IMG/VR virus record: IMGVR_UViG_3300025886_000011
Coordinates: 10,357-74,356 of that record
Direction: 5' to 3' (one strand)
Length of the DNA stretch: 64,000 bases
Source: a virus
Position numbers and translations under genes: made by a program. The number at the start of each line of letters is the position of its first letter. The first letter of the stretch is position 1. Positions 255-62,141 of the stretch are shown here, one piece after another. Below the pieces are notes generated by a model. It saw nothing but the letters and a program-made list of their open reading frames with translations. It was not told where the DNA came from and made no database searches.

Positions 255-1001
255 ATGAAAGACTATACTTATATACTTGGTCCTTGTAGTATTGAAAACG
301 AGGATAACTTTTTAGAAGTAGCCAAAGCATTAGATGCCTATATGGGCGATAAAAACTGGTACTTAAAAGGATCCTTTGATAAAGCGAATAGAACTTCTAT
401 ACATTCCAATAGAGGTCCTGGTTTAGAAGAGGGAATGGAAATTATGAGAACCGTTAAGCATCATTATCCTAATATTAGAATTGTAACAGATATCCACGAA
501 CCTAGTCAAGCATTACCTTTATCAGAAGTAGTGGATGTTATCCAAATACCTGCATTCTTATGTAGACAAACTGACCTTTTAGTAGCATGTGCAAAAAACT
601 TTAATGTTATTAATATTAAGAAAGGGCAGTGGTTATCAGCTGAAGCAATGAAACATGCAGTTGCTAAGATTAAAGAAGTAGATCCAACTTGTGAAGTATG
701 GGTAACTGAAAGAGGATCTAATTTCGGATATGATAGACTTATTGTAGATTTTAGAGGAGTTGATGTAATGAAAGAATTTGCAGATAAAGTTATTTTAGAT
801 TGTACTCATTCAACACAAATGGCTGGTGAAGGTATAACTGGAGGTAGTCGTAAGTTAGCAAAACAGTATTCACAAGCTGCGAGGATTTTTGAATATGATG
901 GTTCATTTATTGAAACTCACCCAGATCCAGACAATGCAATATCAGATGCAGGGAGTCAAGTAGAATTAGATTGGTTAATATCTAATATTACAAATATATG
1001 A
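255..1001 (+). CDS. kdsA: KDO-8-phosphate synthase
   Basis: GPCSIE, KGSFDKANRTS, QIPAFLCRQTDL, NIKKGQ, ERG, DCTHS and ETHPDP motifs. Confidence 0.92.
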   Translation: MKDYTYILGPCSIENEDNFLEVAKALDAYMGDKNWYLKGSFDKANRTSIHSNRGPGLEEGMEIMRTVKHHYPNIRIVTDIHEPSQALPLSEVVDVIQIPAFLCRQTDLLVACAKNFNVINIKKGQWLSAEAMKHAVAKIKEVDPTCEVWVTERGSNFGYDRLIVDFRGVDVMKEFADKVILDCTHSTQMAGEGITGGSRKLAKQYSQAARIFEYDGSFIETHPDPDNAISDAGSQVELDWLISNITNI

Positions 1002-2068
1002 ATTTAGTAAACATATTATCAGAAAGTCTTAAATCTGAGAATAATGTTTATTTTCATATTGAAGATTTAGTTGAATGGTCTAAGAAGGTTATATCTAAAG
1101 GGCACGTTGAATATACTACAAATAAAGAAGGTCAAGTAATTTCATATGTAGCTTATTACAAAAATAAAGAAAGTTATTTTATTACAATGGTTTGGACTCA
1201 CTCTGATTATAGAGGTAAGGGTCTTTCTAAAAAAATCATTAAAGATATTGTAAATTCTACCGAATTACCTATAGACCTAGAAGTTCATAAAGATAACCCT
1301 GCTTATAATTTATATAGGTTATTAAAATTTGAAGCTATTAATTTTTGTGATGATCAAATAACAATGAGGAGATGTAAGAAGTTAGCTATAATGCAACCTT
1401 ATATCTTTCCTTATGTAGGTTACTTTAGTTTAATTAATTCATCTGATAAAATTTTATTTTATGATGATGTTAACTTTATTAAAAAGGGATGGATTCATAG
1501 GCAAAGAATTCTTATAAACGGTAAGGATCATTTATTTACCATTCCTTTAAATAAACCATCACAAAATAAAAAGATAAATCAAATAGAAATATCTGAAAAT
1601 GAAAGCAGGTTAAAAATCATAAAGAGTATTGAAAACGCATATAAAAAGGCACCATACTTTAAAGAAGTTTTTCCAATTATTAAAAAAGTCATATTAGGCA
1701 AGTATACTCATATTGATGAAATGGCTATATCTTCTTTAGTGGCAGTATGTAAATATTTAAACTTAGAGATTAATTATGATAGGACATCAAAGGCTGATCC
1801 CGGTTCTCAAGGTCAAGAAAAATGTGAAAGGTTAGCATCTATAACAAAAACATTAGGTTTTTCTAATTATGTAAATGTAATAAATGACATGTATGATAAA
1901 GAAACTTTTAAATCAAAGGATGTTAATTTATTTTTTAATGATCATAAAATAAAATCATACAATCAATTCGGTAAACCTTTCGTATCTCATCTATCAATTA
2001 TTGATGTTTTAATGTTTAATTCAATAAGAGACACTAAGAAATTAATATTATCATATCATATCATTTAA
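998..2068 (+). CDS. GNAT acetyltransferase domain fused to a WbqC-family domain
   Basis: N-terminal YRGKGLSK acetyl-CoA motif and NPAYNLY; from aa ~131 MQPYIFPYVGYF..YDDVNF.K.GW..R and SIIDVLMF (WbqC). Confidence 0.8.
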   Translation: MNLVNILSESLKSENNVYFHIEDLVEWSKKVISKGHVEYTTNKEGQVISYVAYYKNKESYFITMVWTHSDYRGKGLSKKIIKDIVNSTELPIDLEVHKDNPAYNLYRLLKFEAINFCDDQITMRRCKKLAIMQPYIFPYVGYFSLINSSDKILFYDDVNFIKKGWIHRQRILINGKDHLFTIPLNKPSQNKKINQIEISENESRLKIIKSIENAYKKAPYFKEVFPIIKKVILGKYTHIDEMAISSLVAVCKYLNLEINYDRTSKADPGSQGQEKCERLASITKTLGFSNYVNVINDMYDKETFKSKDVNLFFNDHKIKSYNQFGKPFVSHLSIIDVLMFNSIRDTKKLILSYHII

Positions 2069-2070
2069 TG

Positions 2071-2078
2071 AATATATA
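2071..2078 (+). promoter_or_regulatory. Late-type promoter (GT2)
   Basis: AATATATA 19 nt before the ATG. Confidence 0.55.
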
Positions 2079-2097
2079 ATAAAATTAGAAAACCAAT

Positions 2098-2985
2098 ATG
2101 TTACAGTCATATGATACTTACTTATTACTAGAATCTTTTATTGATGATAAAAACTTTGAAATCTTAAATGAAAAGAATCTCTCTAGTAAAATTAACAATG
2201 ATATAAAATTTGCTGTAGTTATGCCAACTTATAAAATTAAGAGTGATGCAGGTGTACATAAGACAAGAGCAAATCATATGTCTTCGGTTGATGTTCTTAA
2301 GGATTCTTTAGGATCTATTAAAAATCAAAAATTTAAAAATTGGAAATTATTTATAGTCGGGGATAAGTATGAAGAAGACCAAGAATTAAAAGATTTGCTA
2401 TCTTCTATGTTTAAGCCTGGCCAATATGAATATTTTAATTTACCTAAACCTGGTGAAAGAGAATCTAATATATCTTCAGAAGAAAAGAGATTAACTGGAG
2501 GAATTAAAGCAGTTAATAAAGGATTAGATATGGCAGCATCTGCAGGTTTTGATTATGTTACAAGATTAGATCATGATGACAAATGGGCACCTAATCATTT
2601 AGAGCTTTTAGCAAAAGCATATTCGCAATTTCCTAACCTAGGATTTGTATTTACACAAGGTAAGAAAAAGATAGATGCTACTAATTCTTCTGGTGGTTAT
2701 ATGATGATGCCTGACGCGACACCTGAATTAGATGTTAATAATAAAGGTTATGCAACTGGTCAAACTGCTGCTAGTTCTGTTTCATGGTGTCCTAAGCTAA
2801 TAGGTAAATTTAAATACCGAGATGCATCAGCACAAAAAGGAACTGAGCCAAAACAAAAGAAAACTATTGCTGGTGATGTTGATTTATTTCAACGGATGAT
2901 GAAAGCAATAAAAGACAAAGAACATAAATACATGTTTATACCTAAGATGACTGTATATCACAGAAACAGAAAAGGTAAATTTTAA
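2098..2985 (+). CDS. GT2-family (GT-A) glycosyltransferase with late promoter and putative head-targeting leader
   Basis: VVMPTY, AVNKGL and RLDHDDKWAPNHLE (DxD) motifs; N-terminus MLQSYDTYLLLES. Confidence 0.8.
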   Translation: MLQSYDTYLLLESFIDDKNFEILNEKNLSSKINNDIKFAVVMPTYKIKSDAGVHKTRANHMSSVDVLKDSLGSIKNQKFKNWKLFIVGDKYEEDQELKDLLSSMFKPGQYEYFNLPKPGERESNISSEEKRLTGGIKAVNKGLDMAASAGFDYVTRLDHDDKWAPNHLELLAKAYSQFPNLGFVFTQGKKKIDATNSSGGYMMMPDATPELDVNNKGYATGQTAASSVSWCPKLIGKFKYRDASAQKGTEPKQKKTIAGDVDLFQRMMKAIKDKEHKYMFIPKMTVYHRNRKGKF

Positions 2986-3020: not shown

Positions 3021-3197
3021 ATGGAAAAATTTGAAGAAATTAAAGCTCTTATTGAATCAGTAGGAGAAGACGTAGATAAATTCTATGTGAAGGGAAACAA
3101 GGCTGCAGCTGTGAGAATCAGAAAAGCAATGCAGGATGTTAAAAATTTAGCACAAGAAGTAAGATTACACGTTCAAGAAACTAAGAACAATATGTAA
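3021..3197 (+). CDS. Histone H1-like Hc1-family small basic protein (58 aa, absent from ORF track)
   Basis: MEKFEEIKALIESVGEDVDKFYVKGNKAAAVRIRKAMQDVKNLAQEVRLHVQETKNNM matches the KFY.KGN.AA..R.RK.MQ..K.LAQ..R..VQ pattern of the Bacteroidota Hc1-like family. Confidence 0.85.
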   Translation: MEKFEEIKALIESVGEDVDKFYVKGNKAAAVRIRKAMQDVKNLAQEVRLHVQETKNNM

Positions 3198-3215: not shown

Positions 3216-3249
3216 AAAAGGACTATCTTTAACTAGGTAGTCCTTTTTT
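3216..3249 (+). terminator. Rho-independent terminator
   Basis: AAAAGGACTATCT-ttaact-AGGTAGTCCTTTT(TT) hairpin with U-tract after the Hc1-like gene. Confidence 0.85.
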
Positions 3250-3273
3250 GTTTGTAATTTATCCTATTTTACT

Positions 3274-3301
3274 TGAAACCATTTTACATTCTTCTATATA
3301 A
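3274..3301 (+). promoter_or_regulatory. Middle-type promoter (DNA-modification operon)
   Basis: TGAAAC-N16-ATATAA(TAATAA). Confidence 0.7.
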
Positions 3302-3321
3302 TAATAAATCAATTAGATTAT

Positions 3322-3873
3322 ATGGAAAGGTGCTTAATATTAGATTTTGACGATACTTTAGTTTCTACTATAGATACTCATGCCGATTCTTGGAGGCGTG
3401 CATTAGAAAGAGTTCTTAATAGAGATATTCCAATAGAGACCATAATGGCTGATATTAATTATGGTATGGATGTTCTTTTAAAGAAATATCAATTAACAGA
3501 TAATGAATCAAAATTAGCACAAGACTATAAACGAGACATATTTTCAAAGAATCTTTACAAAACTAAAATTAATCAATTACTTTTATGGGTAATAAAAAAT
3601 TCTAATTTTGAAAAGGTTATTATGGCATCTAATTCATCTAGGGAAAATGTAGATAGAATTATGACTTATCATAATATTAGTACTGATTTATTTGATCTTA
3701 TTGTAACAAGAGATAGTGTTTTAAATAAAAAGCCGCATTCTGATATGGCAGATTTAATATTTAAAACATTTCCTGAATATGAACCAACTGATTTTTTAAT
3801 GGTTGGTGATTCAGAAGTAGATTCAACATTCGCACTTAAAAACAAAATGAAATGCATACTGGTAAAGTTTTAG
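3322..3873 (+). CDS. HAD-superfamily phosphatase
   Basis: Motif I ILDFDDTLV, KKPHSD and motif IV VGDSEVD. Confidence 0.88.
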   Translation: MERCLILDFDDTLVSTIDTHADSWRRALERVLNRDIPIETIMADINYGMDVLLKKYQLTDNESKLAQDYKRDIFSKNLYKTKINQLLLWVIKNSNFEKVIMASNSSRENVDRIMTYHNISTDLFDLIVTRDSVLNKKPHSDMADLIFKTFPEYEPTDFLMVGDSEVDSTFALKNKMKCILVKF

Positions 3874-4598
3874 TAGGAAATAGTGGAGATAGAGTATATC
3901 TTCAGGATAACAAAGTTATCAAAGAAGCAGGTGTTTATCCTATAAAGTTTAAACAACAAATGGATTGGTTACAAAACTGTACTCATCCTAATTTTATAAA
4001 GATTAAGCCTATTTCAGATACCTCATTTGAAATGAAAAAACACCCTACATGGTACGATAAAATCTGTGAACAGCCTTTAGTTAAATCAATTGAACAATTA
4101 GATGATCTTATTCATATAGTAAATGACTTTGATGGTTATGGTGCTGATGTAGATGTAAGATCTTATTTGGATAAATTAGAAGGGCGAACTGGTTATAAAT
4201 ATGAAGGTGAATTAAATGCAACATCTAGTTGGGGTTTTGTACACGGTGATTTAACAGTAAGTAATATCTTATATGATAATGATTTTATTTTTATTGATCC
4301 GCGAGGTACTGAAGAACAGAATTATTATGACTATGGAAAACTGATGCAATCCTTTGTAATGAAATATGAGGCCCATATATACAATGAAAGGAATTCTAAA
4401 TATCTTAAGTTCTGTAGAGAAGCAGAAAACATAATGTATGAATGGTATGATGAATATCAATTAAAATTCTTTTTAGCGGTCCACTTATTAGGAGCAGTAC
4501 CTTTCTTTGAATTAAATGAAAGATATGAATTAGCTGGGATGTTCCTTAAAAAAGGCCATGAATTATTTGACGAATTAGAAATTAAATATAGCAAATGA
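3852..4598 (+). CDS. APH/choline-kinase-like phosphotransferase (putative sugar kinase)
   Basis: Brenner motif HGDLTVSNIL followed by FIDPRG and YYDYGKL. Confidence 0.8.
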   Translation: MHTGKVLVGNSGDRVYLQDNKVIKEAGVYPIKFKQQMDWLQNCTHPNFIKIKPISDTSFEMKKHPTWYDKICEQPLVKSIEQLDDLIHIVNDFDGYGADVDVRSYLDKLEGRTGYKYEGELNATSSWGFVHGDLTVSNILYDNDFIFIDPRGTEEQNYYDYGKLMQSFVMKYEAHIYNERNSKYLKFCREAENIMYEWYDEYQLKFFLAVHLLGAVPFFELNERYELAGMFLKKGHELFDELEIKYSK

Positions 4599-5302
4599 GT
4601 AGAGTAAGAAAAGCAATTATCTTAGCAGCCGGGAGGTCTACTAGGTATGGATCAAATAAACTTATAGATCCAATTTTAGGAAAATCAACAATTCAGTACT
4701 GTATTGAATTCTGTATTGAAAATGGAATAGAGGATGCATATGTTACTATAAGTAAATCTGACTTCTTTTTTAAGAATAGAAATACAAAGTTATCTCATCC
4801 TATTATTGAAAGTTTATCAAAGTATAAAGAAAAGATAAACATTTGTTATGAATTCCAAAAGGATGATGAATATGGACCAGGTGCAGCAATTAAAGCATGG
4901 GAAGGTAAATTTTATGAACCTTTCTTATGTCTCTTTGGTGACAATTATTATCAAGGTAATATTGGTTTAGAATACCATGATCCGAACAATACTGTTGTTA
5001 CTTATAAGGATTACGAAACTAGAGCAAGAAATTTACAACTTGCTACTATCATAGAAGATGTGGTTATTGAAAAACCTCATGGCGTAGTAAACGGAAGATA
5101 CTTCTGCGGATATATGATATTTGCAAAAGAAGCGTTTGATAACTTAAGCAGTATTAAACTATCAAATAGAAATGAATATGAAATTACTCATCTTATAAAC
5201 TCGATGGATGTTTTAAAATTTGAAGAATTAAATATATGTTGGTATGACTTAACATACGAACAAGATAAACAAGTAATAGAAGATATTATTCAAAATTGTT
5301 AA
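4595..5302 (+). CDS. Sugar-phosphate nucleotidyltransferase
   Basis: AIILAAGRSTRY..NK, LFGDNYY, EKP and RNEYEIT motifs (RmlA/GlmU-like). Confidence 0.88.
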   Translation: MSRVRKAIILAAGRSTRYGSNKLIDPILGKSTIQYCIEFCIENGIEDAYVTISKSDFFFKNRNTKLSHPIIESLSKYKEKINICYEFQKDDEYGPGAAIKAWEGKFYEPFLCLFGDNYYQGNIGLEYHDPNNTVVTYKDYETRARNLQLATIIEDVVIEKPHGVVNGRYFCGYMIFAKEAFDNLSSIKLSNRNEYEITHLINSMDVLKFEELNICWYDLTYEQDKQVIEDIIQNC

Positions 5303-5303
5303 T

Positions 5304-6569
5304 ATGAAAGAGAATGTAAAAAAGATTGGCTTTTTTAAATTAGGTAAAGCCATAAAGTTTAATGAAAACAGCTGGAGCGCAATCGGTGGTGATTGTGAAC
5401 CTAAGCAATTAATTTGTTCAATTGCAAACCGAAATCCTAATATTGAATATTGGCTATTAAGCCCAAATGACTTAGGTAAGTTTAGAGCAAAACAAAAACC
5501 TAAAGTAAATTCTTTATTTGGCCCCCCTCCTACTGATGAACCTGTAGTTCCTAATAATATTAAGGAATTTCATTCAACTATGAAAGAGAGAAAATCTACT
5601 GATGAAACTGTTGAAATTATTCAAGGTTTAGATTTAGATTTTATTTTCTTTTATACTGGTCCAACAAGTACCGTTAATATTCCAGAGTATATTAATAAGA
5701 AGGATGGTACTGGTCAAGTTAAATCATTAGACTTCTTTAAGTATTATGCAGCTCCTATTATTAAATCAATGAATGAGTTGGAAAAGAAAGTTCCTATTGT
5801 TGGTTTACTTGTTGATAACCGTTATATACTTGCATGTAAAGATTGGGGAATTAATAATAGACCAACTTATTACTTAGCACAAAATACATTTACTAAAGAA
5901 GAACAATATTTCTGCAATCCACCCTTGCGAGATGTCAAGACTATCACATCAACATATGAATATTCAGGTATTGAAACAGTATTCTTATTAGATAAGAAAA
6001 GATATGATACTGATGAATTATTCAAAATGAAGAAAACTGATTCGTTTATGATGTTACAGAATCAAGGTAAAGGTTCTGGTGGAATGGACCGATGGGATCC
6101 GGTAAAAGAATATATTGTTGATCAAGAAATTGAGACTGATATCTATGGAAAATGGGATGATGAAATCAAGGAAAAATATCCTAAATGGTTTAAAGGAGAA
6201 ACTAGAATTGAAACAATGACTGATGAATTACTTGGTACTAAATATACATTCTGTGTACCTATTAAAGAAGGTATGGTAACATCTAAGTATGCTGAAATGC
6301 TACACTATGGTATTATACCATTCTTACATCCGTCTTACGACACTGACTTTAATGTCTTCCCTGAAGGTCATTTTATTCGATGTAAATCAGCAGAAGATTT
6401 AAAAAAGAAAATTGAATTCTTAAATGCAAACCCAGAGCATTACAAGAAATTATTTTATAACCTGCAAGAAAAGTATCTTAAGGATTCTTATTATACTGGA
6501 GAACATGTAGATAACAAGATCTGGGAATCTTATGAACACGTAACAAAAACTGAAACAATAGATGTATAA
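5304..6569 (+). CDS. GT-B glycosyltransferase resembling T4 beta-glucosyltransferase (putative DNA glycosyltransferase)
   Basis: C-terminal DIYGK..VTSKYAEMLHYGIIPFLHPSYDTDFNV..FIRCKSAEDLKKKIEFL aligns by eye with T4 BGT EFFG..ITLRVWETM..IDEEFDTKHRI..YVNNRAELIDRVNEL; LVDNRY resembles FTDIRL. Confidence 0.7.
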   Translation: MKENVKKIGFFKLGKAIKFNENSWSAIGGDCEPKQLICSIANRNPNIEYWLLSPNDLGKFRAKQKPKVNSLFGPPPTDEPVVPNNIKEFHSTMKERKSTDETVEIIQGLDLDFIFFYTGPTSTVNIPEYINKKDGTGQVKSLDFFKYYAAPIIKSMNELEKKVPIVGLLVDNRYILACKDWGINNRPTYYLAQNTFTKEEQYFCNPPLRDVKTITSTYEYSGIETVFLLDKKRYDTDELFKMKKTDSFMMLQNQGKGSGGMDRWDPVKEYIVDQEIETDIYGKWDDEIKEKYPKWFKGETRIETMTDELLGTKYTFCVPIKEGMVTSKYAEMLHYGIIPFLHPSYDTDFNVFPEGHFIRCKSAEDLKKKIEFLNANPEHYKKLFYNLQEKYLKDSYYTGEHVDNKIWESYEHVTKTETIDV

Positions 6570-7584
6570 TTCCGAAACAAAAATCCTAATCACCGGTGGT
6601 GCTGGGTTCGTTGGTACAAATTTTATTAACGATTTATTAAAAAGAGGGCACAACCCTAAATGTATTGCTGTAATTGATAATATGGAACATGGTACTTATA
6701 TACCTAAAGTCCATGATCAAATTGAAAATTTTCATAAAGTAGATATTAGAAATCAATATGTAGAAAATATAATTCAGGAATTTTCCCCTGATTATGTTTA
6801 CCACTTTGCAGGTTTAGTTTCTATTTATGATTGCCACGAAGACCCTTATGAAGCTGTAGATAATAATATCTTAGGAAGTATTAATGTAATGAACGGTTGT
6901 GTAAAGGCAGATGTAAAAAGAATTATCTTTAGTGAAACTTCTGCAGTATATGAAAATTGTGAAATGCCTAAAGAAGGATTTAATGAAAAGCAATCTGATC
7001 CTACTACAATTTATTCTACGACTAAAGCATGCCTTGCCTTATTAGCAGAATCATATCAGAGAACTAAAGGTTTAAATTATACTGCATTAAGATACTTTAA
7101 TGTTGCAGGGCCACTGCAAGATTATAATAGAACCATCCCTCCTGTATTTGCTGGATTTATTTTAAGAATTAAAGGTAATCATAACCCTATAGTATTTGGG
7201 GATTATATGAAAGCAAGAGATTATATTGATGTATCCGACGTTAACGCATTTCATATTCTTTGTATGGAAAATGAAGACACTGCAAATCAAACATTTAATT
7301 TAGGTACTGGTAAAATGACAAACCTAATGGATCTTAAAAATATGATTGGTGATATTATGGGAATAGATAAACCTGTGTTTGATCACTACGATCCGATTGC
7401 AGGTGAAGCTCTAAATATTAGAGGGGATATCTCTAAGGCTAAGTCAATGGGATGGGAACCTAAAAAAGATATCAGAGATACGATAAAAGAAACAATAGTT
7501 TACCTTGAAGAAGAAATTAACCAAGGGACCATTGATCCACTAACATTTATGGAAAATTTAGAAATTGAAAAAGTAAAAATTTAA
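6562..7584 (+). CDS. NAD-dependent NDP-sugar epimerase/dehydratase (GalE-like extended SDR)
   Basis: ILITGGAGFVG, HFAG, YSTTK (YxxxK), LRYFNVAGP, RDYIDV motifs. Confidence 0.92.
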   Translation: MYNSETKILITGGAGFVGTNFINDLLKRGHNPKCIAVIDNMEHGTYIPKVHDQIENFHKVDIRNQYVENIIQEFSPDYVYHFAGLVSIYDCHEDPYEAVDNNILGSINVMNGCVKADVKRIIFSETSAVYENCEMPKEGFNEKQSDPTTIYSTTKACLALLAESYQRTKGLNYTALRYFNVAGPLQDYNRTIPPVFAGFILRIKGNHNPIVFGDYMKARDYIDVSDVNAFHILCMENEDTANQTFNLGTGKMTNLMDLKNMIGDIMGIDKPVFDHYDPIAGEALNIRGDISKAKSMGWEPKKDIRDTIKETIVYLEEEINQGTIDPLTFMENLEIEKVKI

Positions 7585-7587
7585 TAT

Positions 7588-8850
7588 ATGGAAAAAGAAT
7601 TAAAATGGGGTACTATAATTCCACTAATTGGTGGTAGTGCTATAGGATGTAAAAAATCTGCAGGTAATGAACCGGCATTTCATTTAAGCTATGATGCATT
7701 TGCTGCTAACGAAAGTCATATCGAAAAATATTGGCCAGAAGTACCTATGTACAGATTGGATCATGAAGATTTAGATATACCTAAACAAACCTTTAATGAA
7801 GTTGATTATGTAAATTCAGTATGCCCGTGTGCAGGTTTATCACAATTAAATTCTGCAAAAGGTAGTGCTGCATCTCGAGGATCTGGTGCAACGCAGAACC
7901 AATGGATGTATAATTCATCAGAGTATATTTTAGAAAATGTAAAACCTAAAGTTCTTTGGGGTGAAAATGCACCTGGTCTTTTTACTAAGATGGGAGAAGG
8001 TGTAGTTGATAGGTTAAAGGCTATCGGTGAAAAATACGGATATAGTTTTTCGTTAATTAAAACTAATACTGAATTGCATGGAATTCCACAAAGGCGAATG
8101 AGAACATTTTATTTCTTTTGGAATACTCCAACCGTTCCTATGTTAAGTTGGAAGTTTAGAGAAAAGAAAAATCTTATTGATTATCTTAATGAAATACCGG
8201 AAGATGCTACTCATCAAGATATGTTTATGGTTGAAGGAAAGGTTACGGATCATTTTAAACCTTATGAATATGTTTTAGAAAAAGAAGGTTTAACTCATTC
8301 TGAATTTGCTGCTAAATTTAAGAAAGGTACTATTGCTCAATATTTAGAAAAAAATGAATTAATACCTGACTGCATTAAGTGGTTAGAGAAGCATTATCCA
8401 AAAAGAGGATTTTCAAATAAAAAATCTACTAAGACTTTTATTGATATGTTAGAACATCAGCAATATAAGACAAGTCAAGGATTAGGTTATTGGGATGCAT
8501 CACCACACTTCTTTCATGATTCTTTTTCTGCTCTTATTGGTAGAAATATGTTTAACGGAGTTCATCCTATAGAAAATAGATATCTCAATGTAAGAGAGAT
8601 GCTGCACTTAATGGGCCTACCTTTAGACTTTGGTATCGAAAATGCAAAGCAAGTAAATCATATCGCTCAAAATGTACCAGTAACTACTGCAATGGATATG
8701 GCTGATGAAGTAAAGAAATTTTGTAATGGAGAAGCTAAGATGACTAACTATACTTTTCTGAAGCAAGATAATACAAACCATAAAATTATTGACTCTACTG
8801 AAATTGGAGCTGAACCTAAAAAGAAGTATAAAGTAACAAATATAATTTAA
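7588..8850 (+). CDS. C5-cytosine methyltransferase-like protein with atypical SAM-binding motifs
   Basis: Motif IV CPCAGLS, VI ENAPGL, VIII GIPQRRMRTF, IX RYLNVREMLHLMGLP; motif I reads IPLIGG and motif X reads IAQNVP. Confidence 0.8.
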   Translation: MEKELKWGTIIPLIGGSAIGCKKSAGNEPAFHLSYDAFAANESHIEKYWPEVPMYRLDHEDLDIPKQTFNEVDYVNSVCPCAGLSQLNSAKGSAASRGSGATQNQWMYNSSEYILENVKPKVLWGENAPGLFTKMGEGVVDRLKAIGEKYGYSFSLIKTNTELHGIPQRRMRTFYFFWNTPTVPMLSWKFREKKNLIDYLNEIPEDATHQDMFMVEGKVTDHFKPYEYVLEKEGLTHSEFAAKFKKGTIAQYLEKNELIPDCIKWLEKHYPKRGFSNKKSTKTFIDMLEHQQYKTSQGLGYWDASPHFFHDSFSALIGRNMFNGVHPIENRYLNVREMLHLMGLPLDFGIENAKQVNHIAQNVPVTTAMDMADEVKKFCNGEAKMTNYTFLKQDNTNHKIIDSTEIGAEPKKKYKVTNII

Positions 8851-8861
8851 TTATAAAAACT

Positions 8862-9878
8862 ATGAAAGATAACGCGTTAGCAATAGGAATATCAAGCCTT
8901 GAGTTTACAAACATCTTATGTAGCTATTATCCTAAAGGAGTAAAAGAAAAGTTTGATATTTACCTATTTGTAGATGATAGTAAAATAGATTTAGATAAAC
9001 TACAAGGTATTTTTAAAGAGCATGATTTAGACATTTTTAAAAATGCAAAAATTATTATTTTAAATGACCTATATGATTACTATATAGAAAAACATGGATA
9101 TAAAGGTAAGGCGAGAGACTTCTTATTAAGCCATGGCTGTTTATTTAAAATCTTAATGCCTATATATCTAAAAGAAAAATTTGGAGTTAAGAGAACTCTT
9201 GTATCAGATGATGATGTATTCATTTTAAATGACATCAGCTATATGTGGGATGAGTACGAAGAGTTTGGTATTAAAAAAGAAAATTTATTCTATATTAGAA
9301 ATAAAGATAAGCATGAAGTAATGGCTGCCTTTAATGAAATATTTGAATCAGATTTTACTTTAGATGAAATGAATGCTCTTTCAATAAATGCAGGTAATAT
9401 AATTTATGGAGAAGATCCTAAATTAGAATATTACTTTGAAAGATTTATGAAGCACTCTTTTGTCCATCATCAGTATTTTAATTTTACCGGATATACCAGT
9501 TGGACTGTAGAACAAAGATTCCATCATTTTAATATTCATAGGTATTTATCAGAAGGGAGAAAGGTTAAATTTACAGAAAGTAAAGATTTAAGGTTAATGC
9601 AAAATAGAGATAAGATGATGAAAGCTGGTACGCCACCTGACAAATATCTTAAAGTAGTTGTACCATCAATTATTCATTATGCAATAGGAACCAAAAAACC
9701 TTTATGGTTAAATGATTTTTTGCCTGGACTAGAATGGAGGTATGGATTTGTATATGAAGCTAAGTACGAACTAAAAGGTATCCTATATAACAAATCATGG
9801 ACACCTCCACCTTTTAAAAGTGTACAGAAAACCGGATTTAATTTAAAATCAGATTTAAAAACAAATTCGGTGTTTTAG
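8862..9878 (+). CDS. GT8-like (GT-A) glycosyltransferase
   Basis: SDDDVFILNDI (DxD), INAG, EQ and IIHYAIGTKKPLW (GT8 H..g..KPW) motifs. Confidence 0.7.
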   Translation: MKDNALAIGISSLEFTNILCSYYPKGVKEKFDIYLFVDDSKIDLDKLQGIFKEHDLDIFKNAKIIILNDLYDYYIEKHGYKGKARDFLLSHGCLFKILMPIYLKEKFGVKRTLVSDDDVFILNDISYMWDEYEEFGIKKENLFYIRNKDKHEVMAAFNEIFESDFTLDEMNALSINAGNIIYGEDPKLEYYFERFMKHSFVHHQYFNFTGYTSWTVEQRFHHFNIHRYLSEGRKVKFTESKDLRLMQNRDKMMKAGTPPDKYLKVVVPSIIHYAIGTKKPLWLNDFLPGLEWRYGFVYEAKYELKGILYNKSWTPPPFKSVQKTGFNLKSDLKTNSVF

Positions 9879-9880
9879 CT

Positions 9881-9907
9881 TAAACTAAGTAACAATAATC
9901 AATATAA
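9881..9907 (+). promoter_or_regulatory. Middle-type promoter (clamp)
   Basis: TAAAC-N16-ATATAA(TAATAA). Confidence 0.7.
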
Positions 9908-9929
9908 TAATAAACAAATAATATTTTAA

Positions 9930-10679
9930 ATGGAAACAAAAATTAACAAAATTGACGGTTATGAATTAAGTTCATTCGTTCGCAAATTACTTCCAATTGA
10001 CAAATTCATTTTTATGAAAATCGCTAAAGAAGGTACTGTATCTTCTGTCTATTTTCCTGAGAGAGATGCCGTAAAATTGGTTAACACACCAACCTCTGAT
10101 ATCTTTGATGCTGACATTAAAGAACCAGTAAAGGTTAGTTTTTATAACGGTACTAAAGTTATTGATGCATTAAGTCATTTTAATGGAGATGTACAGGGTC
10201 GTATTAAATATACCGAGTATGATGGAGAATTAATGGCAAGTGATTTTATTTTAGAAAATGAAGATCTTCAAATTAATTTGGCATGTACAGATCCTTCATT
10301 ATCTTTTATGGAAATGAGCAAAGAAGAAACTGATAGAGCATTTGATGTTGAATCTAAAATGTTTGATTTTGATTTACTCACAACACATGTAGATAAAATG
10401 AAATCATTATTTAACCTTGATAAAGATGAGGATATCTTTACTCTTTACATTGGAGAGAAAGGAATCAATATCAAAGGTACTTCTTATGATGCTACATTAT
10501 GTCACTCTTATGATTCAAATGTAGAAAAAGGTGCTAAGGTTGTGATATACAAAAAGTATATTAATCTATTAGACAAAGAAAATTACAAGGTAAGTGTTTG
10601 TGAAAATAAAGTAGTATTTAAATCTCTTGATACTAATACACACTTAACTGTTGCTGTTGCTATAACAGACGAGGATTAA
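9930..10679 (+). CDS. gp45: Sliding clamp (gp45-like)
   Basis: 249 aa acidic alpha/beta protein with two-domain clamp-like pattern; replication context; middle-type promoter. Confidence 0.6.
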   Translation: METKINKIDGYELSSFVRKLLPIDKFIFMKIAKEGTVSSVYFPERDAVKLVNTPTSDIFDADIKEPVKVSFYNGTKVIDALSHFNGDVQGRIKYTEYDGELMASDFILENEDLQINLACTDPSLSFMEMSKEETDRAFDVESKMFDFDLLTTHVDKMKSLFNLDKDEDIFTLYIGEKGINIKGTSYDATLCHSYDSNVEKGAKVVIYKKYINLLDKENYKVSVCENKVVFKSLDTNTHLTVAVAITDED

Positions 10680-11668: not shown

Positions 11669-12787
11669 ATGACAGAGGAATTACAAAAAATTAACGAGGA
11701 AGCTTCTAAATTTTACAATTATGAACAAGCTGTAAAATTAATGCTTAACTCTATTTATGGCGCATTTGGTAATCCTTACTTTTATTTCTTCAACGTTGAT
11801 ATTGCAGAAACTATTACACTCCAAGGTAAAGATGCAATTCTTTACACCGAAAACTTAGTTAACAAATATTTTAAAGAATATTGGCATAAAGATACTGCTG
11901 CCCACCAAGCTATGGGAATAACCGTAACTGGTAAAATTGAAAAACCTGTTGGTATTTATATTGACACGGATTCGGTATATGTAAAGTTTGAGGAACTAAT
12001 TAAAAAATCTGAAGGGTGGGAAGGTGATGAAAAAGAATTCATTTTAAAGTTATATGAAGTAAGGCTTAAAGCTTATATAGAAAAAATTCTACAAGTTTAT
12101 GCTGATAATAATAATGCAGAAAACTTTTTATCATTTGAATTAGAAAGTATTGCTAAGAATGCAATATGGTTGGCTAAGAAAAAATACATGCAGAATATTG
12201 TTTGGAAGGATCCGGATATTCATTATGACGATCTTTCTAAAATTAGTTCTAAAGGATTTGAAATTATACAGTCATCCACTCCAATTTTTGCTAGAGAAAA
12301 ACTAAAAGAATTGCTAACATATATATTTTCGGTTAGTGAATTAGATATGGGAGCCTTTGCTGCATTGCTTAAAGATATAAAAAGACAATTTAGATTAGCA
12401 AATGTTGATCAAATTTGTTTTTCACGAAAGGTTAATAATTATCAAAAGTACATTGTAAATGATTATGAACAATTTGAGATTGCATCAAAATGCCCAATCG
12501 GCGTAAGATCTGCAGGTTATCATAATTACCTTTTAAATAATTCTGGCCTTAAAGGAAAATATCAACCTTTAGGAAATGGCGAAAAATGTAAAATGTATTT
12601 TTCTACTGATAACTCGTGTGACGTGTTTGCATTTGCGCCTGGTGATTATCCTTATGAATTTGCCCCTAAGATTGATTATGATAGGCAATTTGAAAAAACT
12701 ATATTAGATCCTATTAATCGTGTAGTAACTGCGATGGGTTTTAAATCCTTTAATAGAAATCTGATTTATACAACAAGCTTATTTTAA
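11669..12787 (+). CDS. gp43B: Family B DNA polymerase, C-terminal subunit of a split gp43
   Basis: Motif B KLMLNSIYG, motif C YIDTDSVY and KKKY; exonuclease and motif A absent. Confidence 0.9.
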   Translation: MTEELQKINEEASKFYNYEQAVKLMLNSIYGAFGNPYFYFFNVDIAETITLQGKDAILYTENLVNKYFKEYWHKDTAAHQAMGITVTGKIEKPVGIYIDTDSVYVKFEELIKKSEGWEGDEKEFILKLYEVRLKAYIEKILQVYADNNNAENFLSFELESIAKNAIWLAKKKYMQNIVWKDPDIHYDDLSKISSKGFEIIQSSTPIFAREKLKELLTYIFSVSELDMGAFAALLKDIKRQFRLANVDQICFSRKVNNYQKYIVNDYEQFEIASKCPIGVRSAGYHNYLLNNSGLKGKYQPLGNGEKCKMYFSTDNSCDVFAFAPGDYPYEFAPKIDYDRQFEKTILDPINRVVTAMGFKSFNRNLIYTTSLF

Positions 12788-57649: not shown

Positions 57650-58125
57650 ATAAAATAATTTTAGTAGGTAAAGGTGCTGCTGGTAAAGATCATATGAGAA
57701 AAATTCTTAGTGGTAGAGGTTTTCAGTATGGTATTTCATACACGACTCGACCTCCTAGGGATGGTGAAATTGATGGTAAGGATTATTTCTTTTTAACAGA
57801 AGAAGATTTTAAAAGAAAAATCAATCAAGGGTATTGGTATGAATGGATAGAATTTAATGGATGGTATTATGGTACAAGCCAAAGACAGTTTACTATAAGC
57901 TGTAACCTTTTTATTATGACACCTAAAGGTATAAGTCATATTGACCCTGTAGATAGAAAAGAATGTACAATAATCTATCTTAATGTAGATGAAAAGATTA
58001 GGCGTAATCGATTAATTAAAAGAGAAATGCCTGGTGATTCAATAGACAGGAGAATGATTGCAGATGCAAAAGACTTTAAAGATTTTACAGATTTTGATAT
58101 TGAAATAAACAATTCTACTTTTTAA
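57646..58125 (+). CDS. Guanylate kinase-like NMP kinase
   Basis: GKGAAGKD, YTTRPPR.GE.DG.DY.F, FNGWYYGT. Confidence 0.88.
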   Translation: MNKIILVGKGAAGKDHMRKILSGRGFQYGISYTTRPPRDGEIDGKDYFFLTEEDFKRKINQGYWYEWIEFNGWYYGTSQRQFTISCNLFIMTPKGISHIDPVDRKECTIIYLNVDEKIRRNRLIKREMPGDSIDRRMIADAKDFKDFTDFDIEINNSTF

Positions 58126-58143: not shown

Positions 58144-58743
58144 ATGAGCAAATTTATTATCATTGAAGGTACAGATAATACAGGTAAAGATACCCAGCAA
58201 AATCTAATTATTGAAAAATTACATAACCTAGTCTTTCATAAGCTTCACTATTCTTCATTACCTTTTAAAGATGATGTAGAAAAACATGTTAATTATTCTA
58301 CTAAAATGTATAATGATATGTTTAAAATGATGGTAAATAATAAAGATGCTGATATTAATATGATTTTTAATAGATCTCATTTAGGTGAATCTGTTTACTC
58401 TCCTCTTTATAGAAATTATTCAGGTGATTATATTTTTAATATTGAAAAAGAGTATGTTAATCAACTAAGAAAAGAATTATATTTAATTACCTTAACTAAT
58501 GATCCTCATACAATTTTAAAACGAGATGATGGCAAATCATTCTATGGTAATGAAGAAGAAGTTAAAGCCGAAGTTGATGGATTTAACAGAGCTCATAGAT
58601 TAAGTAAGATTAAAAATAAACTAAATATTAATATAGGTACAATGAGCGCAGATGAAGTATCTCATATCATAATTGATTTTCTAAAACATGAAAATTCTAT
58701 TAGTGGTGTTGCTGAACAACTAAATATGTTTACTGATGTGTAA
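58144..58743 (+). CDS. Thymidylate-kinase-like dNMP kinase (probable hm-dCMP kinase)
   Basis: IIEGTDNTGKDT, FNRSHLGE.VY; co-transcribed with the dCMP hydroxymethylase. Confidence 0.8.
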   Translation: MSKFIIIEGTDNTGKDTQQNLIIEKLHNLVFHKLHYSSLPFKDDVEKHVNYSTKMYNDMFKMMVNNKDADINMIFNRSHLGESVYSPLYRNYSGDYIFNIEKEYVNQLRKELYLITLTNDPHTILKRDDGKSFYGNEEEVKAEVDGFNRAHRLSKIKNKLNINIGTMSADEVSHIIIDFLKHENSISGVAEQLNMFTDV

Positions 58744-58921
58744 AGCAGAAGATTTATTATACGAGGCTCACCATGAAGGTATTAGAGATGAGGTTCTTGC
58801 TGAGAGCCGTCGATTATATCAGGATAAAAAGAAGTATGAACACATGGAGTTTGGTGATAGAATAGAAATAGCACTAAGAAATGTTAGAGAGAATAAATTA
58901 CAAAGTAAATTAAAAAAATGA
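58736..58921 (+). CDS. Hypothetical protein
   Basis: 61 aa ORF coupled to both neighbours. Confidence 0.55.
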   Translation: MCKAEDLLYEAHHEGIRDEVLAESRRLYQDKKKYEHMEFGDRIEIALRNVRENKLQSKLKK

Positions 58922-59829
58922 GAGTATTTAAAGGAGAGACTTTTGCAGAAGCATACAACTATGCTCTAAGTAGTATTATACATAATCCTACATACATATC
59001 ATCCCCTAGAGGTATGAAGATATTTGAAATGACTGATGCAGCGATCGTTGTAGAAGATCCTACATATTGTCTTTATGAAAATGATCGTAGGAGTAGTCAA
59101 TTTAAATATATTGCAGCAGAATTGGTTTGGTATTTTACTGGCCGTAATGATGCTGACTTTATTACACCGTATGCAAAGTTCTGGGATCAAATTAAAAATA
59201 AAGACGGTACTGTTAACTCTGCTTATGGTAATCTTATCTTTACCGAAGAATTAGAAGATGGTCGTAATCAATATCGATGGGCATTAGATTCCTTAATTCA
59301 AGATAAAGATTCAAGGCAAGCAATTATACATTTTAATAAGCCCTCTCATCAATGGAATGGAAATAGAGATTTTGTTTGTACTCTTAATGGCATATTTCAA
59401 ATAAGAGATAATAAATTAAACTTTACTATTGATATGAGATCTAACGATCTTATATTAGGTACTCCTACTGATGTTGCATTCTTTTGTCTTTTACAAATTC
59501 AAATGTTAGAGCATCTTCGTAATCATTACCCTGAATTAGAATTAGGTACATATACTCATATTGCACATTCGCTTCATTTATATGAAAGGCACTTCGATCT
59601 TGCAAGCGAGATGTTAATGAAATCGTTTAATCCTCAATCATTTCCAAATATGACAGAGTTTTTAATTGATCCTAACGGTAAATCATTAGATGGTTTAAAA
59701 CAATTAGAAGATGAAATGATTCAGAGTAATGATGTTGTATTTAAAGGAAAATCTAATTTTGAACCACAACCTCATGATGATCTTTTACATCAGTGGATAT
59801 CCGACGCAATTTTTAATAAAGCCCTTTAA
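58918..59829 (+). CDS. gp42: dCMP hydroxymethylase (T4 gp42-like thymidylate synthase superfamily member)
   Basis: ELVWY, NSAYG, DSRQA, DFVCT (catalytic Cys) and MRSNDLILGTPTD, with Asp at the position that is Asn in dUMP-specific TS (T4 gp42: DFMCT, MRSNDVVFGFRND). Confidence 0.85.
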   Translation: MRVFKGETFAEAYNYALSSIIHNPTYISSPRGMKIFEMTDAAIVVEDPTYCLYENDRRSSQFKYIAAELVWYFTGRNDADFITPYAKFWDQIKNKDGTVNSAYGNLIFTEELEDGRNQYRWALDSLIQDKDSRQAIIHFNKPSHQWNGNRDFVCTLNGIFQIRDNKLNFTIDMRSNDLILGTPTDVAFFCLLQIQMLEHLRNHYPELELGTYTHIAHSLHLYERHFDLASEMLMKSFNPQSFPNMTEFLIDPNGKSLDGLKQLEDEMIQSNDVVFKGKSNFEPQPHDDLLHQWISDAIFNKAL

Positions 59830-59832
59830 AAG

Positions 59833-60705
59833 ATGGTAATAGATACCTTTTTATATTATAATGAAATAGAATTACTTGAATTAAGACTCAAGGTTCTCTA
59901 TGACTACGTTGATCGCTTTGTAATAGTAGAAGGTGATCATACACACAAGGGGGATCCTATCCCCTTTAGGGCTAAAAATGATCTTAAGAAACTAGGATAT
60001 GAAAATGATAGAAAGATACATGTCATCGAAGTAAACCTTAAATCTTTTGATGAAGAACCGGATCCTTGGAAAAGATCGGATCGTGCTAGGAATGCACAAG
60101 CTAGCATATATTCTGACGATGATGATATAGTTATTATTGCAGATATAGATGAATTATGGCATCCTCATTATTTACAACAGCATGTAAGATATTTAAACGA
60201 AAACCCAACTCATGTTTTAATTAATAGATGTTGGGATTTACAAGGCCAAGTTGATTTAGGACTATATGCCAAACATAATAATGAATGTAATTCTAATGCA
60301 CCTTTATTTGCCAAAGGTTCTTTTTGGAAAAAACATTCACCAGCTTCTGCTAGGTGGATATGCGGTTGGGGTGGTAATAAAAAAGATTTTCCTTTTGAAG
60401 TTAATTGGTTTACTGATGTTAAGAAGGGGTGGCATCTTTCTTATATGGGAAATGTTGAAAGAAAGTTATCTAAAATTAATACATCATGTCATTGGGATGA
60501 TGAATGGGTTCCAGGTATTTCTTTCGAATCAGATTATACAAAGAACCGCTTTAAGAATTTTAATGGTAAACCTTTAACAGATGGTAGAGATTTATTAGGT
60601 AGAGAAAATTTTTATATTAAGCCATTTGATTACACTGATCTTTTTGATACGATTGGTGACGGCTCAGATCATTTAAAAGATTGGTTATTAGGTAGAAATA
60701 TATAA
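59833..60705 (+). CDS. GT17-like glycosyltransferase
   Basis: F..YNE.ELLELRL..L..VD.FVIVE..T..G, ADIDEL, GWHLSY. Confidence 0.8.
   Translation: MVIDTFLYYNEIELLELRLKVLYDYVDRFVIVEGDHTHKGDPIPFRAKNDLKKLGYENDRKIHVIEVNLKSFDEEPDPWKRSDRARNAQASIYSDDDDIVIIADIDELWHPHYLQQHVRYLNENPTHVLINRCWDLQGQVDLGLYAKHNNECNSNAPLFAKGSFWKKHSPASARWICGWGGNKKDFPFEVNWFTDVKKGWHLSYMGNVERKLSKINTSCHWDDEWVPGISFESDYTKNRFKNFNGKPLTDGRDLLGRENFYIKPFDYTDLFDTIGDGSDHLKDWLLGRNI
60697..60704 (+). promoter_or_regulatory. Late-type promoter (ATP-grasp protein)
   Basis: AATATATA. Confidence 0.55.
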
Positions 60706-60722
60706 ACAAAATAAAACTTGTT

Positions 60723-62141
60723 TTGAAGTATCTAAAATTATTTGAACAATTCCTAAATGAAAAGAAACCTAAAGGAGCACCAGACTTCCATCATTCTGAT
60801 GCACCTGATGCTGAAGGTAGATTTAAAGATCTTTCTATAAAAGATTTAGCCGCATGGTTAATTAAAACTAGAAAGAAAGATGTTAAAAAAATTAGTGGTT
60901 CTTTAACTCAGCAAATAGTTTTTAACAGAAAGAGTGACCCTAAGTATGCTGAAAAGATGGAGAAAACCAGAAAAGAAGTATATAAACAATTAGGCAGAGA
61001 AGATTTATTAAAAGAATATGTTGTAGAGGTAAAGAAACCTATCGATATTACTGTTGGTGGTAAAGAATATAAGCTTACTAAAAAAGGAAGTAAGATTACT
61101 CTAACTAATACTAAGTTATCCGCTGATAAGTTTATATTTAGAAATGAAAAAGAATTTAAAGAATGGGCTGATGATCAGGTAGAACCTATTGGTGGAACTC
61201 AATCATCTCATTTTGGTATCAGTGAATCAAAGGATAGTGAAAATGGTCTAGGTAAAGTTTATTTAGCATTAAGAGAAGATAGTGGACATAGATGGTGGAC
61301 TTATAAAGGTTTTGCTGGGGATAAGTTTTTTACACAAGTTCATGAAAACAATATGAATGACATTGATATTAATCCAGACTATCCAGTTTTAACCTATCAT
61401 TCAGATACAGTTAATAAACTAATAAAGGCTGGTAAGATTAAAAAAGAAAATGTTTATAATCACCCAGACCACATATCAAAATCTGGATCTAAGGAAGAAT
61501 TCCATAAACTGGTTGGAGAAGATGAAAATATACCTAAGACAGTATATTCTAAGAATGATGCATTAGAGCAATTAGAATTTCCTATTATTGCAAAACCTGC
61601 AGAAGGTCATAGTGGAGAAGGTATTCAAATAATAGAAAAGCCAGATTTAATGGAAGAGGTGGACGAAAAGATTTTTGATACCTTTTCAGAATACATTGAC
61701 AAGGCAGAAGAACATAGGTTTATAAACTTTAAAGGAAAGCCGATTTTTTGGATGGAGAGAACTCCTATAAATGAAAAGGCTAAGTCCGGTAAAGGTAGTG
61801 CTAAAGAAGCTATGGAGTTTGGATATGCTAAAAGAAATATTAAAGATTTACCTAAAGATTATAAAAAAGTATTAGAGAAGTTTTGTAAGATTTATGAAGA
61901 TTTGCCTTATATGTGTTTTGATGTTATGAAAGGTAAAAATGGAAAGGTCTATATTATTGAATCCAATGCTCAGCCTGGAGTACCTTTTGATTCTACTATT
62001 GAAGCTTATAAACATATCTATGAAGATTTTTATAAGAAATCTCTTGACGAAGAAAGTTTAACTAAATTAAATGAATATGCTAAAACTATGATTGAAAAGA
62101 CTCTTAAAAAAGATGGGGGCAAAAGATTTTCAATTAAATAG
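60723..62141 (+). CDS. Late protein with putative head-targeting leader and C-terminal RimK-like ATP-grasp domain (TTG start)
   Basis: MKYLKLFEQFLNE leader; IPKT..PII.KP..GHSGEGI, EYID..EHR, FDV, IESNAQPG. Confidence 0.78.
   Translation: MKYLKLFEQFLNEKKPKGAPDFHHSDAPDAEGRFKDLSIKDLAAWLIKTRKKDVKKISGSLTQQIVFNRKSDPKYAEKMEKTRKEVYKQLGREDLLKEYVVEVKKPIDITVGGKEYKLTKKGSKITLTNTKLSADKFIFRNEKEFKEWADDQVEPIGGTQSSHFGISESKDSENGLGKVYLALREDSGHRWWTYKGFAGDKFFTQVHENNMNDIDINPDYPVLTYHSDTVNKLIKAGKIKKENVYNHPDHISKSGSKEEFHKLVGEDENIPKTVYSKNDALEQLEFPIIAKPAEGHSGEGIQIIEKPDLMEEVDEKIFDTFSEYIDKAEEHRFINFKGKPIFWMERTPINEKAKSGKGSAKEAMEFGYAKRNIKDLPKDYKKVLEKFCKIYEDLPYMCFDVMKGKNGKVYIIESNAQPGVPFDSTIEAYKHIYEDFYKKSLDEESLTKLNEYAKTMIEKTLKKDGGKRFSIK

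Follow-up and report, generated by a model that had tools for sequence, protein, structure and literature searches.

The window analysed here, 64,000 nt of viral DNA, corresponds to bases 10357-74356 of the 76,973-bp IMG/VR virus record IMGVR_UViG_3300025886_000011, which is 29% complete according to CheckV. Near its 5' end lie seven open reading frames (ORFs) on the + strand that would together provide an activated sugar and attach it to 5-hydroxymethylcytosine (hmC) in DNA. They encode, in order, an HAD-IA type phosphatase or phosphomutase (3322-3873), a putative anomeric sugar kinase (3852-4598), a sugar-1-phosphate nucleotidylyltransferase (4595-5302), a GT-B glycosyltransferase (GT) resembling the beta-glucosyltransferase (BGT) of phage T4 and predicted to act on hmC in DNA (5304-6569), a GalE-type nucleoside diphosphate (NDP)-sugar 4-epimerase of the SDR family (6562-7584), a C5 cytosine DNA methyltransferase (MTase)-like enzyme of a distinct family (7588-8850), and a GT8-like GT-A glycosyltransferase, which would be an accessory second transferase (8862-9878). 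The junctions between consecutive ORFs measure -22, -4, +1, -8, +3, and +11 nt. Pfam scans identified this uncultured marine phage as a distant T4-like myovirus with a T4-type portal, a gp15-like protein, UvsX, a gp41-type helicase, gp46/47, topoisomerase II, ribonucleotide reductase (RNR), and a family B DNA polymerase (PolB) in two genes. The GC content of the window is about 30%.

An intrinsic terminator with a 13-pair stem and a T tail (3216-3247, + strand) closes the gene upstream of the operon, which encodes an Hc1 protein. It is followed by a promoter-like site of the replication, or 'middle', class (3273-3307, + strand), where TTGAAA-N18-TATAAT at 3273-3302 has 11/12 matches. The next promoter-like site (9882-9913, + strand) marks the end of the operon and precedes a gp45 clamp-like gene (9930-10679). 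With the ORFs, the terminator, and both promoter sites found, the sequence-only reading of a seven-gene operon between two promoters stands. The underlying motif, AAAC-N15-18-ATATAAWAATAA, occurs ten times in the window, always on the + strand, against 0 copies expected from 100 shuffles, and has no copy within 3322-9878. Its sites are at 3276 before the sugar operon, 9882 before the clamp-like gene, 11633 before the C-terminal half of PolB, 14425 before UvsX, 15945 before the gp41-type helicase, 23570, 33072, 53613 before topoisomerase II, 56881, and 58107 before a Tmk-like kinase and a thymidylate synthase (TS) homolog. Two more copies lie upstream of the window in the record, one of which precedes a gp56 homolog. 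The copies at 11633, 15945, and 58107 agree with the earlier claim that the same promoter class serves the polymerase, helicase, and dCMP hydroxymethylase genes. Because this motif is common to the replication genes and the operon, we regard the operon as a member of the replication-gene regulon. Moreover, the operon occupies the slot between gene 43 and uvsX, where T4 has beta-gt/42 and RB69 its arabinosylation genes.

The transferase encoded at 5304-6569 could hardly be recognized from its single sequence, which gave only a sub-threshold Pfam match (PF13524 at 0.0036) and, by BLASTP, no match against the PDB and none against T4 BGT. An exhaustive search gathered a family of 377 clusters at 50% identity. 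When a profile of 100 family members was compared with the PDB, T4 BGT was found at 2.1e-8 and 1.2e-7, and no other E-value was better than 7e-4. Alignment of the family with BGT by hhalign gave a probability of 94.2% and an E-value of 1.2e-7. The AlphaFold (AF2) model of the protein reached a predicted local distance difference test (pLDDT) score of 93.7. BGT took ranks 1-4 in a Foldseek search with this model (top 6e-10), and VIA-align placed BGT first with Z scores of 22.1-22.9, the best of which spans 317/344 residues, followed by 6eji (20.4), BshA (19.9), T4 alpha-glucosyltransferase (AGT; 18.6), and the HY126 arabinosyltransferase (17.0). In BFVD, the second best match bears the name DNA beta-glucosyltransferase. 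The residue D171 in the motif D(N/P)RY, which is invariant in the 100 family members and is their sole invariant acidic residue, aligns with the catalytic base D100 of BGT (LFTDIRLPF). R263, K328, and E331 align on the UDP-binding residues R195, R269, and E272 of BGT, with the invariant K328 as Lys replacing Arg. The BGT-like call therefore survived a check for better matches among lipopolysaccharide (LPS) or capsule GTs, as BGT was best by both profile and fold and the catalytic Asp is kept. By profile and model, the protein is a distant member of the T4 BGT lineage.

The acceptor base would be supplied by the TS homolog at 58918-59829 (+ strand), which is predicted to be a gp42-type dCMP hydroxymethylase. 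Among TS homologs, the substitution N177D brings about cytosine specificity, and an acidic residue at position 143 accompanies hydroxymethylation. In an alignment with E. coli ThyA, T4 gp42, and RB69 gp48, the product of this gene has D143, C146, D169, and D177 in ThyA numbering, showing all the marks of the gp42 type (N177 to D, L143 to D or E, C146 and D169 kept), while RB69 gp48, the control in the same alignment, has N169. D169N is the signature of flavin-dependent 5-hydroxy-dCMP synthases (PMC13326640), and a 5-hydroxycytosine reading of the gene was ruled out by D169. The best PDB matches were MilA (1e-22) and T4 dCMP hydroxymethylase (4e-22), which, together with the residues in the alignment, confirmed the earlier assignment of an hmC-type enzyme. 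A homolog of the T4 gp56 dCTPase (36% identity, 9e-26) is encoded upstream of the window. The TS homolog is flanked by guanylate-kinase and Tmk-like kinases, and the Tmk-like nucleotide kinase (58144-58743, + strand; a weak PF02223 match) forms one operon with it behind the promoter motif at 58107. Likewise, RB69 and DLP3 carry a thymidylate-kinase-like nucleotide kinase within their modification clusters (PMC13326640). The phage thus encodes a T4-style route to hmC-DNA. Given the gp56-type dCTPase, the gp42-type dCMP hydroxymethylase, and the companion kinases, cytosine is probably replaced by hmC in replication. A GT17-like glycosyltransferase (PF04724, 3e-15) begins 4 nt past the TS homolog, and the next gene encodes an ATP-grasp protein (window 59833-62141). 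The GT17-like protein may be an additional DNA or glycan transferase; informative phage relatives of this gene were searched for and none was found.

The MTase-like enzyme matched PF00145 at 1.2e-19, with 71 bits against a cut-off of 22. Its alignment with M.HhaI and M.HaeIII covered motifs IV-VIII and IX-X, including the Pro-Cys of motif IV, the Glu of motif VI, and the QxRxR of motif VIII; a comparison with the PDB gave nothing at E<=1e-3. Its motifs (IIPLIGG, CPCAGLS, GENAPGL, PQRRMRTF, and QNVPV) are all retained in 39/39 relatives. In motif I, the first Gly of the canonical FxGxG is replaced throughout the family, for which we found >2,000 matches. Eukaryote-derived transcripts (P0314, P0348, and P0356) encode proteins with 50-55% identity to the phage enzyme and the same CPCAG/GENAP/QNVP motifs. 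At their C-termini, these proteins carry long tails in which Cys-rich segments resemble zinc fingers; one such segment scored as zf-CXXC. Because the eukaryote-derived homologs share the odd motifs, the latter are a family trait and not local decay. Residues required for covalent attack on C6 are retained, and the protein accompanies the BGT-like GT as a fixed partner. It may methylate residual or host cytosine, carry out chemistry at the 5-substituent of hmC, or present the base to the transferase. A bolder proposal, which we put forward tentatively and hold to be rather doubtful, is that the enzyme, found in phages expected to lack unsubstituted C5, is no ordinary cytosine methylase and acts on hmC or glycosyl-hmC in DNA, either exchanging or extending the 5-substituent via C6 attack or flipping out the base and handing it over. 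This would yield an undescribed cytosine derivative and a 'glycodiverse' hmC by means of swappable sugar cassettes of the arabinose, nonulosonic-acid, or hexose/epimerase type.

The operon and its two conserved enzymes could be followed through many genomes. The order Hc1-HAD-kinase-nucleotidyltransferase-GT-SDR-MTase was collinear in 39/39 related viral contigs. The GT8 gene is missing from one clade (about 85% identity) among these relatives and is therefore accessory. In seven of the contigs (L020, L023-L025, L027, L035, and L037), about 0.65-0.7 kb of extra DNA lies between the epimerase and MTase-like genes, which may be a mobile endonuclease insertion. The survey was widened to GT-family and MTase-family members on unrelated contigs. 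Of the 12 lineages with enough context, 11 have the GT and the MTase-like protein together. The exception is Enterococcus phage Planchet (OX422066), in which the GT is found with a TS homolog and homologs of AfhE/AfhF. These belong to the Afh route, by which sugar-5-phosphate is converted via the 1,5-bisphosphate and sugar-1-phosphate to UDP-sugar, yielding UDP-arabinose in RB69 and HY126 (PMC13326640). Enterococcus phage 9183 carries the same GT family as Planchet. Pseudoalteromonas phage XG4 (vB_Psh_XG4) has a TS homolog, an AfhF-like HAD, an AfhE-like nucleotidyltransferase-kinase fusion, the GT, a second GT-B enzyme, and the MTase-like protein; four further contigs (L011, L012, L056, and L057) have AfhE/AfhF homologs with the GT and the MTase-like protein. 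The GT family thus adjoins AfhE/AfhF homologs in six lineages. In L014, an epimerase, the GT, the MTase-like protein, and a TS homolog are found. In L059, the T4-like slot from PolB to UvsX contains a TS homolog, a dCMP deaminase, the GT, a phosphatase, NeuB, a CMP-sugar synthetase, and the MTase-like protein. Three lineages chosen from the MTase side (L060, L061, and L062) also have the GT amid sugar genes, at 9e-94 to 6e-151 against the family profile; in L062, the neighbours of a TS homolog and PolB include a SIS domain protein, a ribulose-5-phosphate 3-epimerase, and a small HAD.

Across this survey, the GT usually stands beside PolB or an hmC-type TS homolog. It adjoins hmC-type TS homologs in XG4, Planchet, L014, L059, and L062, and every GT-linked TS homolog that was aligned is of the hmC type. 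The sugar-supply genes vary by lineage, being of the AfhE/AfhF arabinose type, the NeuB/CMP type, or the HAD/kinase/nucleotidyltransferase/epimerase set of the window. In Planchet (L006:6018-7990), PLANC_62, annotated as a glycosyltransferase, is an AfhE-like nucleotidyltransferase-kinase fusion, and PLANC_63, annotated as a polynucleotide kinase, is a small HAD like AfhF (RB69 gp51). Denvervirus phages like Planchet probably produce a UDP-pentose, or a sugar akin to it, that is destined for an hmC-type base; a literature search on DNA modification in Enterococcus Denvervirus or on this gene combination found nothing. Cyanophage S-TIM5 presents a different case: its gp076 (L005:4763-5599), annotated as thymidylate synthase, has a PCH motif, Cys at ThyA position 143, and, at position 177, the Asp that marks cytosine specificity. 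An MTase-like homolog is encoded 2.4 kb away (gp080), and the surroundings contain no BGT-like GT. The product of gp076 may serve another cytosine modification.

From the TS homologs, the DNA MTase-like partner, and the promoter class, sugar transfer to hmC in duplex DNA is the most likely predicted function of the BGT-like enzyme. We consider it probable, on the strength of sequence comparison and structural modelling, that the operon is a DNA hypermodification module by which a T4-like phage attaches its own activated sugar to hmC. Several observations weigh against this reading. The transferase shares only about 12% identity with T4 BGT, is 70 residues longer, does not keep R191 of BGT, and falls below the Pfam threshold for PF09198. 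The TS homolog is located 50 kb away from the operon. The kinase is the weakest assignment of the operon, having no useful match in the PDB by sequence. A C5-MTase would lack an obvious substrate in DNA with hmC in place of all cytosine. Finally, the KdsA, GNAT-WbqC, GT2, WavE-like, and GT17-like genes of this phage and the arabinose-5-phosphate isomerase (API) and KdsB of a relative suggest a second, non-DNA glycan.

In an alternative reading, the operon itself makes a glycan for a non-DNA target, such as virion proteins or the LPS or capsule of the host envelope, and the likeness to BGT reflects shared GT-B ancestry only. Marine and giant viruses have other sugar genes that do so, many GT-B enzymes reach Z 17-20 against the GT model, and 65% of the phage GT contigs in the survey by Pyle et al. 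are without a base-modification neighbour (10.1101/2023.12.21.572611). The nearby sugar genes point the same way: KdsA (255-1001), a GNAT-WbqC fusion, and a GT2 lie directly upstream of the operon region (window 255-2985), a WavE-like gene is close by, and API and KdsB occur in the relative. Yet BGT is the only significant profile match in the whole PDB, with the catalytic Asp retained, and the operon has the promoter class of replication genes in a slot that corresponds to T4 beta-gt/42. Furthermore, the GT has as its constant partner a protein with the DNA-acting fold of C5-MTases, and TS homologs of the hmC type are repeatedly found in the vicinity. We therefore regard a non-DNA target as distinctly unlikely.

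The neighbouring sugar genes seem to belong to a pathway of their own. No SIS domain, as in arabinose-5-phosphate isomerases, was found in the 77-kb record, which is 29% complete. A 182-kb relative (G001, L054:1387-2759) encodes a single-domain KdsD-type arabinose-5-phosphate isomerase with 35% identity to RB69 gp55, followed by KdsB. Since the KdsD-type isomerase adjoins KdsB in the relative and KdsA is present at 255-1001 of the window, a separate phage branch leading to CMP-Kdo (Kdo, 3-deoxy-D-manno-octulosonic acid) or a modified sugar is suggested. Fragments of a sugar aminotransferase and an acyltransferase are close by in the relative, and KdsA of the present phage is apparently co-transcribed with the gp56 homolog, the N-terminal PolB gene, and RNR. 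A reading of the operon itself as a Kdo pathway, with KdsA, the HAD as KdsC, and the nucleotidyltransferase as KdsB, was rejected, as the HAD is of the HAD-IA type, the nucleotidyltransferase is RmlA/GlmU-like, and the real KdsB is found elsewhere in the relative.

The first three genes of the operon form a putative sugar-activating trio. The HAD protein, of the HAD_2 type (PF13419, 3.5e-20; beta-PGM/PGP family matches), has intact motifs I (DFDDT for DxDxT) and IV (GDSEVD for GDSxxD). A BLASTP comparison (E<=1e-3) with the ORFs of the comparison loci bearing AfhF-like HADs, which did not include RB69 gp51, gave no link. The kinase is protein-kinase-like, of the APH/choline-kinase type, with a weak PF01636 match (0.009). 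Its catalytic loop HGDL..SN...FIDPRG is common to the kinase half of AfhE-like fusions (4e-6 to 6e-4) and is retained in 34/34 relatives covering that region. The nucleotidylyltransferase is of the RmlA/GlmU/GalU type (TIGR03992, 8e-16; TIGR01208, 9e-13; PF12804, 1.7e-6), matches PDB 2ggo at 1.4e-6, and has 38% identity to the nucleotidyltransferase of the L060 sugar island. With the AfhE-like fusion of XG4 and with RB69 gp53, it has only the N-terminal glycine-rich loop in common. The epimerase (PF01370, 4e-46) best resembles UDP-glucose 4-epimerase (PDB 4zrm, 2e-41), with the motifs GGAGFVG and S..YSTTK and without the TDE motif of dehydratases. No Pfam hit, PF01501 included, was obtained by sequence for the last protein of the operon. 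Its AF2 model (pLDDT 87) is nearest to XXYLT1 (3.5e-8), LARGE1, glycogenin, and LgtC by Foldseek, which bears out the GT8 label given earlier, and the DxD residues D117 and D118 are invariant in 33 sequences.

The sequence-only reading had explained the trio by kinase/phosphatase/nucleotidyltransferase logic, possibly starting from arabinose-5-phosphate. The logic is exactly that of the published Afh route to UDP-arabinose, although the trio is not orthologous to AfhE/AfhF. The guess at arabinose-5-phosphate is unsupported for this phage, because the trio are not AfhE/AfhF orthologs and a GalE-type 4-epimerase suits a pyranose better than an arabinofuranose; it fits the sister lineages with AfhE/AfhF homologs. 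We propose that hmC would be incorporated into the DNA during replication. The kinase would place a phosphate on C1 of a sugar or sugar phosphate, the HAD enzyme would remove or shift the second phosphate, and the nucleotidyltransferase would form the NDP-sugar, probably a UDP-sugar. The GalE-type SDR may invert C4 of that NDP-sugar or of a UDP-hexose or UDP-pentose taken from the host. The BGT-like enzyme would then transfer the sugar with inversion to the hydroxymethyl group of a flipped-out hmC, and the retaining GT8 enzyme, where present, might add a second sugar.

In a simpler scheme, the BGT-like enzyme would glucosylate hmC with host UDP-glucose or use UDP-galactose from the adjacent epimerase, and the trio would serve another acceptor or the second transferase only. 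The first sugar would then be an ordinary hexose that required no new NDP-sugar pathway. T4 BGT indeed works without any sugar pathway, the SDR is of the plain GalE type, L014 has the epimerase and GT with no nucleotidyltransferase visible within 8.6 kb, and Pyle et al. described pairs of GT and epimerase working from the E. coli metabolome (10.1101/2023.12.21.572611). Such a scheme nevertheless seems unlikely to us, as the trio is collinear with the GT in 39/39 relatives, the clade without GT8 included, and a sugar-activating cassette directly adjoins the GT family in most other lineages.

A third alternative arises from the position of the MTase-like gene beside GTs and an epimerase, which is the published architecture of clusters combining a C5-MTase, a 5-methylcytosine (5mC) oxygenase of the 5mYOX (TET) type, and GTs (PMC8256090; 10.1101/2023.12.21.572611). 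In such a post-replicative route, the C5-MTase would make site-specific 5mC, an oxygenase that escaped recognition would convert it to 5hmC, and the GTs would glycosylate those sites only. Neither the 77-kb record nor any of three relatives (91-182 kb) gave a match to Tet_JBP (PF12851) at E<=1. The genome has gp42-type and gp56-type genes, and a TS homolog and 5mYOX occur jointly in only six contigs in the survey by Pyle et al. (10.1101/2023.12.21.572611), making this route very improbable. In the preferred reading, the hmC comes from the gp42-type enzyme before replication, and the MTase-like protein thus cannot have the published role of making a 5mC precursor.

One of the closest known systems is T4 BGT with gp42/gp56, which makes glucosyl-hmC (CAZy GT63). 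The two have in common the GT-B fold, detectable homology, the catalytic Asp, an hmC-type TS homolog, and a gp56-type dCTPase, and T4 beta-gt also lies between the DNA polymerase gene and uvsX. Unlike T4, which relies on host UDP-glucose only, the operon comes with sugar-activation genes of its own and also encodes an epimerase, a second transferase of the GT-A kind, and the C5-MTase-like protein. The Afh pathway of RB69, DLP3, and HY126 (PMC13326640) is alike in its use of a phage kinase, HAD phosphatase, and nucleotidyltransferase to supply DNA glycosylation with an NDP-sugar, in the position beside gene 43, and in the Tmk-like kinase next to the TS homolog. However, the Afh phages have D169N TS homologs leading to 5-hydroxycytosine and GT4-like transferases, whereas the phage described here keeps D169 and has a BGT-like transferase. 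Its kinase and nucleotidyltransferase are separate genes, unlike the fusion AfhE; the nucleotidyltransferase and HAD belong to other families; the epimerase is extra; and no API occurs in the 29%-complete record. Shewanella phage Thanatos, a T4-like phage with pentosyl-cytosine, also combines a sugar modification of cytosine with a phage UDP-sugar pyrophosphorylase (PMC12838424). Its TS homolog is of the 5-hydroxycytosine type (PMC13326640), and no C5-MTase-like partner was reported there. GT-B clusters associated with TS homologs and neighboured by an epimerase, APH, and methyltransferase have been noted in a survey (10.1101/2023.12.21.572611).

Sugars on cytosine protect the DNA of phages against both restriction enzymes and CRISPR nucleases, and they make standard sequencing and cloning fail. 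The novelty ascribed to the locus by the sequence-only reading was overrated, as arabinosylation pathways and large GT surveys are in print: phage hmC glycosylation, NDP-sugar supply by phages, and C5-MTase/TET/GT clusters are already published (PMC13326640, PMC8256090, 10.1101/2023.12.21.572611). What is new is the family related to BGT, the near-obligate pairing of this family with a C5-MTase-like enzyme in gp42-type phages that have no dioxygenase, and the exchange of sugar cassettes at one locus. The locus defines a widespread branch of the BGT lineage that is abundant in marine metagenomes, in which a conserved transferase and a conserved C5-MTase-like partner are combined with sugar-supply cassettes that can be interchanged. 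The locus is a source of candidate enzymes with which new sugars could be attached to hmC as site-specific labels, and it offers a means to predict which uncultured phages bear hypermodified DNA. It also poses the puzzle of a C5-MTase fold in a genome with its C5 positions already occupied.

With regard to the phage as a whole, the nearest portals are those of uncultured huge phages (62% identity), Sphingomonas phage PAU, and Lak phages. Close relatives are frequent in marine metagenomes, with contigs reaching about 219 kb, and a blastn comparison of the operon DNA with 50,697 phage records gave a single 86-bp match and nothing more. PolB is split into an exonuclease/N-terminal gene upstream of the window (L002:6327-7742) and a C-terminal gene (window 11669-12787), which lie about 14 kb apart. 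Between them are the small and large subunits of RNR, KdsA, GNAT-WbqC, GT2, Hc1, the sugar operon, the clamp-like gene, and the WavE-like gene. The related contig L061 has an intein in PolB in place of the split. The product of the clamp-like gene has no Pfam hit, and its language-model features resemble gp45-type sliding clamps; on account of this resemblance, it was rejected as a candidate for a hidden oxygenase. Three genes in series precede the N-terminal PolB gene (L002:4356-6336). They encode a DNA glycosylase of the Fpg/Nei type, the homolog of the gp56-type dCTPase, and an O-methyltransferase of class I (Methyltransf_24/_3), the last of which could methylate a sugar. The Hc1 gene (window 3021-3197) encodes 58 aa resembling chlamydial histone H1 (PF07432, 6e-23). 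It lies directly 5' of the operon in all relatives and is also present in L061, and its product may compact the DNA of the modified genome.

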